This document shows positions 5,050-21,510 of a DNA stretch of 64,000 nucleotides, piece by piece. The notes below the pieces were generated by a model. That model did no database searches and had not been told where the DNA came from. It saw only the letters and a list, made by a program, of their open reading frames with translations. The stretch spans positions 34,756,399 to 34,820,398 of the forward strand of contig NC_057719.1 of assembly GCF_004010195.1 (NCBI RefSeq). The letters are read 5' to 3'. How positions within the stretch are numbered: position 1 is the stretch's first letter; each line of letters opens with the position of its first letter. This stretch comes from Chiloscyllium plagiosum. Taxonomy: Eukaryota. A program made the translations under genes and the position numbers.

Positions 5050-6617
5050 GGATTGATCCGTGTACACAACTGCCTCTGATACATTTTTTTGTCACATAAA
5101 ATTAAAATGTTGTAAGGCCAGTACCAAACTCAATAATTCTTTTTCGATCGTAGAGTATTTTCTCTGGTGGGTCTTAAGTTTCTTTGAAAAGCAACCAATT
5201 GGCTGTTAAATTCCATCATCATCTTCCTATAGCAGTAGAGCTCCAACTCCTATATCACGAACATCAATTGCAACTTTGAAGGGTTTCAAAAACATTGGTG
5301 TAGCTAAAACTGGTGTGATGATTAATACTGCTTTTAAATTGTCCAATGCCTCCTGGCATTGTTCAGTCCACTGAAATTTTGTTCTTCTTCAGTAAGTGGG
5401 TGGCACGGTGGTTAGCACTGCTGTCTCACAACACAAGGGTCCCAGGTTTGATTCCAACCTTGGGCAACTGTCTGTGTGGAGTTTGCACGTTCTCCCTGTG
5501 TCTGTGTGGGTTTCCTCCGGGTGCTGTGGTTTCCTCCCACAGTCCAAAGATGTGCAGGTCAGTTGAATTGGCCATGCTAAATTGCCCATAGTGTTAGGTG
5601 CATTAGTCAAAGGAAAGTGGGACTGGGTGGGTTACTCTTCGGAGGGTAAATGTGGACTTGTTGGGCCGAAGGGCCTGTTTCCACACTGTAGGTAATCTAA
5701 ATCTAAAAATTTGTTAGTGGTGTCACTACGCTGTTGATGTTTTTGGAACAAACTTCCAATAGAATCTGCTTAGTCCCAAAAATCAAAGCACCTCTTTCTT
5801 CAAGTTTGGTCATGTAAATTCCTCGATGGCGTTCGTCTTTGCGTTCCTTTAGGTCAACCTTCCATGACTGATGTTATGTCCCAAGAACGTCAACTCTGAA
5901 TTTGCGAATTCTGTTTTCTTTAAGTTTGATACCAGTTTTGTTTCTCTTAATCATTCAAAGAGCTCTGCCAACTGTACCATGTGATCCTTCCATGACTTAC
6001 TAAAGATCACTACATCATCCAGATAAACTGCACAGTTTGTTAACCCAGCCATAACACTGTTCATGAGTCTTTGAAAAGTGGCTGGTGCATTCTTCATTCC
6101 AAAAGGCATTACTTTGAAATGATATAGCTCATTTGGGGTTACAAACATAGAAACTTCTTTTGTTTTCTCTGATAAAGGTACCTGCCAATAACCACGCAGT
6201 AAGTCCACCTTTGTGATGTAATTACTTGTCCAACTTTCTCTACACAGTCCTCCAATCTTGGTATTGAGTATGAGTCCAATTTTGTTCCGGCATTGACCTT
6301 CTGATAGTCCACACAAAATCATTGAGTTCCGTCAGGTTTGGGAACTAACACGATTGGCAAACTCGACTTGCTCTGACTCGGTTCGATGATATCTTCATTG
6401 AGCATCGCATCCACTTCCTTCTGGATCCGTGTGGCCATGAAAGGATTAAGCCTGTAGGGGTGTTGTTTTGTCGGAACAGCATTCTCTACTTCTACCACAT
6501 GCAGAATAGCATTAGTCCTCCCATCTTATTCCAGCATATGTCCTCATACTGCTGTAACAAACCTTTCAACTGAGTTCTTTGCTCCTGAGACAGATAGTTC
6601 ACTAACCTAGCCCACTC
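5050..6617 (-). mobile_element. Ty3/Gypsy pol fragment (RT and RNase H), interrupted by a SINE and by the ERV
   Basis: DLLRGYWQVPL...YHFKVMPFGMKNAPATFQRLM...AVYLDDVVIFS; RNase H PFKVAID...YSTIEKELL; frame continues across the ERV as NEEVLDEWARLVNYL once one ACTC copy is removed. Confidence 0.9.
5398..5703 (+). mobile_element. HE1-type SINE, full length
   Basis: gtggcacggtggttagcactgctg...ggcctgtttccacactgtaggtaatctaaatcta. Confidence 0.9.
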
Positions 6618-7265
6618 TGAAGATCTCAACTCATGGGAGGGGTCTCTCAGGTCTGCGATCAGTCAATAAACACTAGCAATTTGGTCTGGTTCTGTAAGAT
6701 TTCACACTTTAATTATGGCCAGACACAGGTTGTCCAGCAACACAGAGGCTAAACACATCTGTGTCCCTCAGAGAAACCACGTGAATGGCTTAAGACAAAG
6801 ACATTTTTATAAATTTTTTGTGAGAAGTACAGGGTATCATTCCAGAGCACATTCAGACAATTATCAATCAATTTTAATAAAATGACTTTATTGACAGCAA
6901 TGTAGCCCAATGATATTTCCTGGGAACCAAGCTTACTTTCCACATTCAAGCACCCCACCTCACGAAACTATTCTTTGCACCTGCACTTGCAAGATCAGTT
7001 AGGGTGGCTAGTAATGTCTTATCTAATTTAATTATTTCTATGCTATCAGGGAAGCATTGTCTGCTAATCTTTGTTGAGGCACACTATGGTTAGTCCAGGA
7101 ATACAGCTTTTAGCAGCTTTAAGCAGAATTATCAATTTGCAGCCTTGAAGCCATTTTGTTATATTATTTGCATTTAGACTCCATTTTATTGCTACCTATG
7201 TTAGTAAGAGCATGTATTAAATGGTTGTTTCTGACTACAGCCTGTATACAGATTTCAGATCCTCA
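6618..7265 (-). repeat. ERV 3' LTR (648 bp)
   Basis: TGAAGATC...GATCCTCA terminal inverted repeat; roughly 90% identical by eye to 20357-21025; AATAAA on minus strand at 6887-6892. Confidence 0.95.
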
Positions 7266-7278
7266 TCTCCCTGTCTTG
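7266..7278 (-). promoter_or_regulatory. Polypurine tract of the ERV
   Basis: Minus strand caagacagggaga directly abuts the TG of the 3' LTR. Confidence 0.7.
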
Positions 7279-7365
7279 GTCATTCCATGACCACACCATA
7301 GGATGGGAGGGCATAGATTAGATCAGTCCAATCCAATGGACGCCAGAGACTGCCATACTTCCTTT

Positions 7366-8984
7366 TTACAGGGAGGAAGTAGGGATAGGCAAACCCACCT
7401 CCTCATCTTCATTCGGATGGAGAAAAAGCATTTTCTGGGGGGAGCCAATGCTGTCAACAGAAGCTATTAGCTTAGCAATAATATATTTAACAATAGCAAT
7501 ACCAGCAAAGAGACAAACTAAAACAATACCAATATACATGGCCAGATTAATCAACCAGTTGTACCATGAACCAAAGCCCCTATCTCCCAATCCCGCGCCT
7601 TCTGTCATTTATCTGATGAAGGTGCGAATGTTATCTACATGCCTGGTAATATTCTCAATGAGGTCAGCAACCCCCACCCTGCATTTGCCTTTAACTATGG
7701 AGCAAACCCTACCCTCTTTTGCAAGTAGGTAGTCGAGAGCGTACCGGTTTTGTTGGGAAACTAAGCGTAATCCTAAAAGCACGTCCTTAACTCCTGCTAA
7801 GGCCGAGGACGTCTCATTGCCCAAGAGGCTGAGACCGCAAATGAGATCATTTCGGTTTTGATGGCTAATAGTTCCTGCAGATCCTCCTAAGGAAAAAAGT
7901 ACTAAGAAATGCATACCCCACAGACTGAGCTTTAGTGGTGCCAAAAGCCTTAGCATCCCTCCATTGTGTGCAGAATTCAGGTGAGACTGAACGTTTAACA
8001 GGGAAACGCCAATCCCATTCCCAGGTAATGTGACGGTGAACAGTAGTCGGGAAAAGTGTGCCTACAGCTACAGCACGGGGAGTACTTATTTCATCAAGGA
8101 CAAGGAAGTTGGTTGCTTTGTCTCGGCTGAAAACATAATAACCAGGTTTAGTATAGATGATGAAGGGATCTTCCCAATAAGAAGCAGATCTGTCTTTGTG
8201 ACTTACCCCAACATATACATAATCCATGGCTACAAAGTGTGGTTGTCCAGAGTGCTTAAGGTGAAAACTGCTCAATGAAAAGAAGTGAGTCTCTCGGTAA
8301 GAGATGTGGTTATTGTCTCACAACTGGGAAAATGGAGGTCCCATTAGGGGTCTCTTAGTGGGGATGGGTGCCATTGCTCATTCCATAAAGGGCCTGAATA
8401 CCAGCGATAACAGAGACACACTCCTCCAATAGGCATTCACATGAGATGCGAGACCCCACAGGGGAGCATTAGCGTTTGGTAAATTTGATTATAGCGCATG
8501 GAATAGTCACATTCACATAAGTGCACTCCCATCCTTTACCATTGTAACAATTTGGATAGGCTACCCTGGAATTATTAAAGGAAATTCATAAGCAACTAGC
8601 AGGTGGGGATAAGTAATAACATTTCCAACTTTTATCTTTTACGATGTGCAGATTTAGACCTATTTGAATGGGGGCAAGGCTTAACAGGACCGCCCATAGT
8701 ACAATTGAAATCAAACTGGCACACAACATGCTGACAGGGTAAGGACTATTTCGACTTGTTCTGTAACTGAACTGTCTGATCCTCTTGATGCACTTAACCA
8801 TTGCAATGGGGTATGCATCGAAGAAATCAGTCTCTTGGCACAAAAGGACATCTTTCTGGCATAAATGGTACACAGTCTCTGGTTGCTCAGGATCACATGG
8901 GTAAAGAGTTCCTCCTTGCGCACCAATGCTGGCAATGACGAGCCCATATAACAGGGTCAGTTTGATCTTCATCATAATGGTCAT
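7366..8984 (-). pseudogene. env: ERV env (signal peptide, Cys-rich SU, TM with immunosuppressive domain and membrane anchor); several stops and frameshifts
   Basis: Signal-like MMKIKLTLLYGLVIASIGA; VKR/SV cleavage at ~7990; QNRYALDYLLAKEGRVC ISD; anchor LAMYIGIVLVCLFAGIAIV; extra T in run at 7893-7898 and stop at 7609-7611. Confidence 0.92.
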
Positions 8985-20170: not shown

Positions 20171-20336
20171 TTGCGAATTCTTACCAGGACCAATCCTTTT
20201 GGGCTGGACTTAGACAATAAACAGTGAGGGGTCAAGTCAACCAGATTTGAAGTACTTACGTCTGGCTGGCTGATTTATCCACACTCAATAGGAACTCAAG
20301 GCTCTTACACCCCTGTCCACAATCCGTCCATTCCGA

Positions 20337-20354
20337 ATCCGGGTCCCGGCACCA
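20337..20354 (-). promoter_or_regulatory. Primer-binding site, tRNA-His-like
   Basis: TGGTGCCGGGACCCGGAT 2 nt after the 5' LTR; 16/18 match to the complement of the vertebrate tRNA-His 3' end (TGGTGCCGTGACTCGGAT) versus 14/18 to tRNA-Phe, both from memory. Confidence 0.8.
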
Positions 20355-20356
20355 GA

Positions 20357-21025
20357 TGAAGATCTTGACCCATGGGAGGTGTCTCACGGTTCCACGATCA
20401 GCCAATAAACACTCGCAATTTGGTCTGGTTCTGTAAGATTTCACACTTTAATTATTGCCAGGCACATGTTGTTTAGCAACACAGAGGTTAAACACATCTG
20501 TGTCTTTAGGAGAAACTGCTCACATGGCTTAAAACAGACATTTTTATATATATTTTTGAGAGAAGTACAGGGCATCATTCCAGAGCACATTCAGACAATT
20601 ACCAATCAATTTTAATAAAATGACCTAATTGACAGCAACTTAGCCCGATGATATTTCCTGGGAACCAAGCTTACTTTCCACATTCAAGCACCCCACCTCA
20701 CAAAACTATTCTTTGCAACTACAATTGCAAGGCCAGTTAGGGTGGCTAGTAATGTCTTATCTAGTTTAGTTATTTCTATGCTATAAGAGAAGCATTGTCT
20801 GGTAATCTTTGTTGAGGCACACTATGGTTAGTCCAGGAATGCAGTTTTTAGCATCTTTAAGCAGCTTTAAGCGGAATTGTCAATTTGCAGCTGAGAAGCC
20901 ATTTGTTATTTTAGTTGCATTAAGAAGCCATTTTATTGCTGCCTATATTAGTAAGACCATGTATTAAATGGTTGTTTCTGACTACAACTAGTTACCTCAG
21001 CCTGTATTCAGATTTCAGATCCTCA
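20357..21025 (-). repeat. ERV 5' LTR (669 bp)
   Basis: Direct repeat of 6618-7265, followed on the minus strand by the PBS. Confidence 0.95.
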
Positions 21026-21510
21026 ACTCGTCAAGGACTTCCTCATTTTTTAATGTATTTTGAAGCACATCAAACTCCATGACATCTGGATATGATTCCT
21101 CACTCTATGGGTAAGTATTAACAACTGTTCAGGTTTTTCCTGCACCATTACATTAAACAGAGTGTCCGCTAACTGAACCTTAACTCCTTTGTCTTTCTTT
21201 TTAGTTTTTGGTTCGTGCTGTGACTTATGATAGTGGGATCTTGTTACTACACAGTCTGGAAAAATTCCAGGGTATTTTTATATTAACTCCTCAGTTCCCT
21301 GGTCTTTCTATGGCTTCTCGACAACAAGGGGTGTCAATCCCACTTTGGATCCTGCTAAATCATTCCCAAGAACATACTGTATTCCTGGAACTGACACTAT
21401 GTCAATCACTCCCACTGTTACTTCCCCAGACTTGAGTTGGCACTCCAACCTGATCTTACATAGTAGAAAGTTAAATTTCTGTCCATCTATCCCACAAATT
21501 ATCACTATTA
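21026..21510 (-). mobile_element. Ty3/Gypsy fragment (protease C-term and linker), upstream half of the element split by the ERV
   Basis: VTVGVIDIVSVPGIQYVLGNDLAGSKVGLTPLV, then YPGIFPDCVVTRS; joins in frame to 6617. Confidence 0.8.

Follow-up and report, generated by a model that had tools for sequence, protein, structure and literature searches.

A complete but inactivated class I retrovirus of Chiloscyllium plagiosum with a likely filovirus GP2-type fusion subunit and 2H phosphoesterase insert

Results and Discussion

A full-length provirus of a known kind, with a complete gene map

A 64,000-nucleotide stretch of the Chiloscyllium plagiosum genome (contig NC_057719.1, positions 34,756,399 to 34,820,398; hereafter the window, whose own numbering is used throughout) carries an endogenous retrovirus (ERV) on its minus strand at 6618-21025. 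This provirus is full-length and inactivated, and shows the order gag-pro-pol-env. We read it, with a probability of about 0.85, as a simple class I retrovirus that is complete as a provirus but dead and that has its nearest named relatives in sharks and rays, with a likely tRNA-His primer, a likely 2H phosphoesterase insert in pol and an envelope (Env) transmembrane subunit (TM) likely of the filovirus GP2 type. This kind of element is already known, as filovirus-like ectodomains have been reported in retroviral elements of Chiloscyllium, Scyliorhinus, Rhincodon, Amblyraja and Leucoraja, at 14 loci of which 6 have coordinates for long terminal repeats (LTRs) (Nino Barreat and Katzourakis 2024, PMC11521997; this and the other papers cited here by identifier were available as partial text). 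Since ERV ectodomains of this type have been published for five chondrichthyan genera, the possibly undescribed lineage proposed by an earlier reading of the letters alone (the original prediction) is largely not supported, and what is new is the complete gene map of a well-preserved example, together with two usable characters.

Both LTRs have TG...CA ends (3' LTR, 6618-7265, 648 nt; 5' LTR, 20357-21025, 669 nt; both minus strand) and are bounded by the target-site duplication ACTC, read directly from the sequence at 6614-6617 and 21026-21029. While a four-letter match alone has a chance of 1/256, the duplication is confirmed because the two flanks are halves of one retrotransposon pol, the reading frame of which is uninterrupted across it (RVT_1, E 5.5e-21). 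A polypurine tract, with purines at 11 of 12 positions, lies at 7266-7277 and a primer binding site (PBS) of tRNA-His type at 20337-20354, both on the minus strand. This PBS agrees at 16 of 18 positions with a published tRNA-His motif and at 17 of 18 with the PBS of the epsilonretrovirus reference locus L002. The env stop is 100 nt from the LTR and no accessory open reading frame (ORF) was found, the longest ATG frame being 16 aa in these 100 nt and 9 aa in the leader. Alignment of the LTRs over 644 columns showed 61 differences, of which 35 are transitions and 26 transversions, as well as 7 gaps, which gives a Kimura two-parameter (K2P) distance of 0.102 +/- 0.013. After discounting a CR1 element, a Penelope fragment and an inverted duplication, the provirus measures approximately 9.66 kb. 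The original prediction had named both LTRs, the ACTC duplication, the PBS and the polypurine tract, all borne out by direct reading, alignment and the flank frame; its His primer, its LTRs roughly 10% apart and its absence of 3' accessory genes also stand, as does its length of about 10 kb without inserts, even with the inverted duplication additionally removed.

Gag structure, and Pol as part of a chondrichthyan class I lineage

The gag gene (17600-19715, minus strand, start approximate) encodes a Pro-rich region with a PPxY-type motif and a capsid, for which Gag_p30 was detected on the homologue P0005, followed by a single degenerate nucleocapsid knuckle, recognized as a sequence motif at 17748-17789 (minus strand). 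Pfam matches and homologue alignment placed the aspartyl protease with its DTG motif at 17197-17499, the stop- and frameshift-bearing region of reverse transcriptase (RT), connection, RNase H and integrase core at 13689-16402, and the integrase C-terminal domain (MLVIN_C) at 9134-9379, all on the minus strand; Pfam detected the protease, RT, RNase H, integrase core and the integrase tail of murine leukemia virus (MLV) type. The gag-pol junction has too many frameshifts for the relative frame or a read-through stop to be read. A 4-bp target-site duplication, a single nucleocapsid knuckle and an MLV-type integrase tail mark class I ERVs, and all three were found here, the knuckle in degenerate form.

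Among PDB entries, the RT matched MLV RT at E 4e-23, foamy virus RT at 1e-10 and HERV-K-type RT at 2e-9. Its identity was 45-51% to gamma- and epsilonretroviral loci, 35-42% to deltaretroviral loci and 38% to locus L005. Ten of the 11 RT matches were named and all ten were chondrichthyan, the best (64-69% identity) coming from the genera Scyliorhinus, Leucoraja and Amblyraja; among viral contigs, from which the Pol reference loci were taken, no close relative of the RT was found. The window Pol lay inside a chondrichthyan clade that was starred in the trees, with support of 100/96 in the RT tree and 100/100 in the RT-RNase H trees, and neither the epsilon reference loci nor the gamma ones enclosed this clade. 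Its sister relationship to the epsilon loci L001-L003 reached only 51/93, and a gamma sister had a p value of 0.40 in the approximately unbiased (AU) test (final run, with L006, L010, L015 and L017 left out). On this phylogenetic evidence, Pol is a chondrichthyan class I lineage of its own. The original prediction of an old chondrichthyan class I ERV is supported, while its term "epsilon-like" for gag-pol holds only loosely, as Pol groups apart and the tests rejected neither of the two sister placements.

By genus features the virus is not an epsilonretrovirus, as it is without accessory genes and without a walleye-type Env. Locus L002, which we take from its layout and length to be walleye dermal sarcoma virus (WDSV; a cyclin match was found), resembles the provirus in its His-type PBS, its class I Pol (RT 51% identical) and a homologous domain with two His motifs. 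By contrast, L002 differs in a gag-preceding ORF, in two 3' ORFs, one of them the cyclin, and in an unrelated Env of 1229 aa, in which no TLV_coat match was found.

The Env transmembrane subunit resembles filovirus GP2

The TM (7366-7990, minus strand, with a frameshift and a stop) comprises an internal fusion loop, a first heptad repeat (HR1) with a glycan site, an immunosuppressive domain (ISD), a CX6C motif, a second heptad repeat (HR2) and a membrane anchor. Pfam returned Ebola-like_HR1-HR2 and TLV_coat, both below the cut-off. Among PDB entries, filovirus GP was the top match (E 1e-16, with Mengla-length GP, compared to 2e-8 to 2e-17 for the loci of PMC11521997, likewise cartilaginous-fish ERVs with filovirus GP as best viral match), and 39 filovirus-type entries preceded the first retroviral TM (1.3e-4). 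Identity to filovirus GP2 and Tapajos virus GP was 32-36% over 126-139 aa. A word-indexed protein search with the TM gave no match, and an exhaustive search gave 81 representatives, 13 of them at E<=1e-10 and with 43-55% identity. The seven named among these 13 were all from sharks or rays (Heterodontus, Pristiophorus, Mobula, Chiloscyllium, Hemiscyllium and Rhincodon), and in a tree of 77 rows, nine rows having been dropped beforehand, the window TM fell within a shark/ray Env clade with support of 98/95. Five Heterodontus members of this clade (P0015, P0018 and P0096-P0098) are annotated as "syncytin-1-like" or "ERV FC1 Env-like", and several near-identical TM-only ORFs from Heterodontus are located on one chromosome.

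Further analysis of the cysteines showed that a fusion-loop Cys 43-48 residues before CX6C is present in 13 of 14 scorable clade rows and in all four filovirus rows, compared to 2 of 54 other gamma-type matches. In intact clade members it is paired with a Cys just past the cleavage site, 39-43 residues away; mammalian filoviruses have a spacing of 44 here, and Tapajos GP one of 37. The window, all 13 scorable clade representatives, Tapajos GP and two unnamed rows lack the third Cys of CX6CC, while it is retained in 54 of the 60 other matches and in three rows from mammalian filoviruses. Thus, the gamma-type Env hallmarks of an ISD, heptad repeats and a membrane anchor were found and the third Cys was not. 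Filovirus GP2 (Ebola, Marburg, Mengla) and Tapajos GP have in common with the window TM the fusion-loop Cys pair, the HR1 glycan, the ISD and the Cys loop, and differ from each other in that CX6CC is kept by mammalian filoviruses but not by Tapajos GP or the shark/ray clade. It is therefore likely that the fusion loop of this TM is internal and closed by a disulfide, as in filovirus GP2, and from the cysteine pattern we infer that the surface subunit (SU) and TM would associate without a CX6CC bond. A CXnC subtype without the third Cys, into which the window fits, has been described, alongside nine Env clades, for epsilon-related class I ERVs of anamniotes, including 6 cartilaginous fish (Chen et al., bioRxiv 2021.11.23.469661); class I Pol, a gamma-type TM and the lack of accessory genes are common to these ERVs and the window.

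The SU and its signal peptide were located by homologue alignment at 7991-8984 (minus strand) in several frames, and the SU is approximately 90 codons shorter than that of homologue P0013 between 8728 and 8618. Comparison with the GP1 of Mengla virus and of a Marburg-type virus gave nothing significant, with one stretch only on full-length GP, and Pfam found no Filo_glycop match in the window or the shark/ray Env clade. The look-alikes of the SU were retroviral (Avian_gp85 0.92, TLV_coat 0.91), which is a lead only. The predicted "filovirus-like Env" thus applies to the TM and not to the SU. A resemblance of the SU ends to Tapajos GP that was seen by eye was not significant on alignment, and the Env model of P0013 had a predicted local distance difference test score (pLDDT) of 43, so that the fold search from it was not usable. 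The SUs of the window (8728-8954), P0013 and P0023 have an N-terminal Cys-containing domain that P0012 and P0017 lack; it weakly matches P0026 of another Env clade (blastp E 1.8e-4, in a small set), and Pfam found no EGF match in it.

A probable 2H phosphoesterase domain between protease and RT

Between protease and RT, homologue alignment indicated a likely 2H phosphoesterase domain, split over frames (16700-17150, minus strand). The protease-RT spacer is 305 aa in the skate homologue P0004, compared to 180-198 aa in six references. P0004, which is intact, has two HxT motifs 60 aa apart, and two motifs are also found in homologue P0006. The window insert is 34-38% identical to P0004 in two frames and retains only the second His. 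A "GHLTL" near 17120, noticed by eye, lies in a frame that does not align with the first His of the homologues.

A two-His domain was located at aa 137-264 of P0004, in the Env tail of L002 (nt 8974-9423) and at nt 4669-5118 of L005, where it separates RNase H from integrase, with no match in the other 22 of 24 reference loci or in Callorhinchus P0011. A profile built from L002 and L005 only gave P0004 15.3 bits, while the best of 500 shuffles gave 4.9, and both His motifs align across the three sequences. Moreover, 2H proteins recur among the full-length fold matches (CNPase, the rotavirus VP3 C-terminal domain and plant and bacterial CPDases), and 2H/CNPase domains have been reported for WDSV and other fish retroviruses (PMC9503650). 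When the 2H region was searched against proteins, the 2 records retained from 321 candidates were those of the query itself; the Atlas gave no usable match for the insert and PDB profiles no relevant one. The insert is very probably a 2H phosphoesterase. The "2H insert" of the original prediction is thereby upheld as a likely 2H domain by way of the skate homologue, although the first His is absent in this copy.

Alternative explanations and proposed mechanism

Several results weigh against the reading of a shark/ray class I retrovirus with a 2H insert and a GP2-type TM. Its Pol and Env relatives come from separate records, so that the linkage of the two in other species is putative. A group of the shark/ray, Tapajos, filovirus and two unnamed rows reached 80/92 and 77/82 in the TM trees and was unstarred; shark plus mammalian filovirus had an AU p value of 0.43, and shark plus Tapajos was equally allowed (0.54). 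For the insert, Pfam gave no 2H match on the window frames or on whole homologues, LigT_PEase reached only E 0.075, the model had a pLDDT of 49 and no significant Foldseek match, CNPase came top at Z 4.1 (root-mean-square deviation 4.0, 81 aligned) but tied with unrelated folds, and the window's own frames did not exceed shuffles against the L002 and L005 profile. This lack of a significant library or fold match would suit a spacer or small domain of other origin whose HxT motifs are coincidental, which is nevertheless quite unlikely given the alignment of both His motifs across P0004, L002 and L005, the recurrence of 2H proteins among fold matches and the 2H/CNPase domains published for fish retroviruses.

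An epsilon-type gag-pol could also have gained this env by exchange shortly before the family spread. The env is unrelated to that of L002 and the PBS nearly identical to the PBS of that locus, and incongruence between Pol and Env is frequent in anamniote ERVs (bioRxiv 2021.11.23.469661), but Pol falls outside the epsilon references and the genera with the best RT matches are also genera with published filovirus-like ectodomains (PMC11521997). In addition, a review deems a gamma-type Env ancestral for epsilon-related viruses and the Env of walleye viruses derived. Such a recombinant origin is therefore unlikely, and the env exchange considered in the original prediction is not needed, because relatives of Pol and of Env both occur across sharks and rays and the review takes the walleye Env as the derived one. 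That a retrovirus captured a filovirus glycoprotein gene is disfavoured and very improbable: even though the TM matches GP2 with much better scores than retroviral TMs of known structure and has the fusion-loop Cys in common with filoviruses, the SU lacks a significant GP1 match and has retroviral look-alikes, the shark/ray clade is not nested in filoviruses, and fish filoviruses have been reported to be without the ectodomain (PMC11521997).

Under the preferred reading of an old shark/ray lineage, reverse transcription would have been primed by tRNA-His. The provirus integrated into a retrotransposon pol with a 4-bp duplication, presumably through integrase and in the germ line. Cell entry probably proceeded via an Env with an internal, disulfide-closed fusion loop, its SU and TM held together without the CX6CC bond. 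The 2H domain may have been released or carried along by polyprotein processing, with 2',3'-cyclic or 2'-5' phosphodiesters as putative targets. The pairing of this Pol with this Env would be an old trait of the lineage, and filoviruses would have taken their GP2 ectodomain from its neighbourhood, as published (PMC11521997). After integration, the provirus was hit by CR1 and Penelope insertions and by an inverted duplication, and it gathered numerous stops and frameshifts.

In the published analysis, chondrichthyan ectodomains are sister to those of Ebola, Marburg, Lloviu and Mengla viruses with a posterior of 0.83 (PMC11521997). A more tentative and rather doubtful possibility is that the shark/ray Envs and Tapajos GP are a distinct Env type, with an internal fusion loop and without the SU-TM cysteine, that is sister to, and not the direct source of, Ebola and Marburg GP2, and that the virus carried a mobile 2H nuclease, found at three sites, that may have countered nucleotide-based innate signalling. 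If true, this sister placement would revise the published capture scenario. Two characters are usable in this regard, namely the family-wide loss of the third Cys, common to Tapajos GP and not to Ebola or Marburg, and the occurrence of a small enzyme-like domain in three different places among fish retroviruses; L002, for example, has it in the Env tail, as opposed to between protease and RT in the shark and skate ERVs. For the retrovirus group thought to be nearest the origin of the filovirus fusion subunit, the gene map now gives primer, Pol lineage, insert and LTR age, while the available text of PMC11521997 gives mainly ectodomain matches. Primer site, Pol lineage, 2H insert and missing third Cys were not found described in that text, the published loci being known here by coordinates only, and searches of a mainly open literature brought up no account of a provirus built like this one that has both the insert and the Cys loss; PMC9967133, PMC4977317, PMC11089739, PMC3253121 and PMC4724089 were also compared.

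Family spread and age

The env-LTR stretch was found in 20 of 24 listed sequencing runs, from three organisms and 7 studies, and no RNA run was among those listed with it. When mapped at 85% likeness, runs from all three organisms covered 30 of 30 bins. One env position was found in variant form in up to 23-32 contigs, with pieces 3-6% and 10-15% from the window. These many variant contigs and several distances point to a multi-copy family, the read depth not being a copy number. A single RNA run, of which 2% was read, gave a mean depth of 0-1.4 over env, which is uninformative for this locus. Two pieces match from 13697 onward and have approximately 45 letters beyond that are unlike CR1, as expected of copies free of the CR1 insertion; no junction-spanning pieces were listed from four runs over 5800-15700, where CR1 swamped the mapping. 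With the 2.2e-10 substitutions/site/year assumed for sharks (PMC4422223), the LTR distance corresponds to 231 million years, compared to 23 million years at a mammalian rate of 2.2e-9, and the age of the provirus is therefore only bracketed.

Gene decay, later insertions and surroundings

The locus is dead, and nothing about it suggests use by the host. Pol has 18 stops over eight segments, Env 3 over four and Gag 7, and several frames are used; every gene that the original prediction reported as present was found, but none is intact. A near full-length CR1-type long interspersed nuclear element of 4.3 kb (9380-13688, minus strand; esterase ORF1, endonuclease and RT, identified by Pfam and homologue alignment) splits the integrase between neighbouring residues of homologue P0001. 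In gag, a 152-nt Penelope-like terminal fragment (18552-18703, strand not assigned) is flanked by a 16-bp target duplication (18536-18551 and 18704-18719); this label is fair because the repeat of the fragment also flanks a GIY-YIG ORF at 61724-62698. Moreover, the RT segment 15727-15996 has an inverted duplicate of 272 nt at the RT start (16403-16674, plus strand), 406 nt away from its source and overlooked by the original prediction. The pol sequence at its insertion site is fully kept, and the duplication likely postdates integration because its copies have diverged less (K2P 0.066) than have the LTRs. A (CATCTC)7 microsatellite (9095-9136) lies at the integrase end, directly before env.

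The leader contains three to four imperfect tandem repeats of 74-94 nt with short hairpins (19923-20163, minus strand) and had a folding z of -1.89; an Rfam scan gave one chance match only. The provirus sits in the pol of another LTR retrotransposon (5900-6613 and 21030-21750), between its protease-like and RT parts, and this element is presumably of the Gypsy type, judged by its motifs. Elsewhere in the window, a further non-LTR element survives in pieces at 25269-27224 and gives a weak RT match. A host exon resembling LRR1 (Pfam PH_LRR1 and LRR matches) lies at 49064-49795, and a host exon with a start at 63627-63998, which we take to be MGAT2-like and which had no Pfam match. The GIY-YIG ORF belongs to a longer Penelope-like element at 61509-62932, which has direct terminal repeats and an inverted end, and the Penelope repeat occurs in about 15 short copies in the window.

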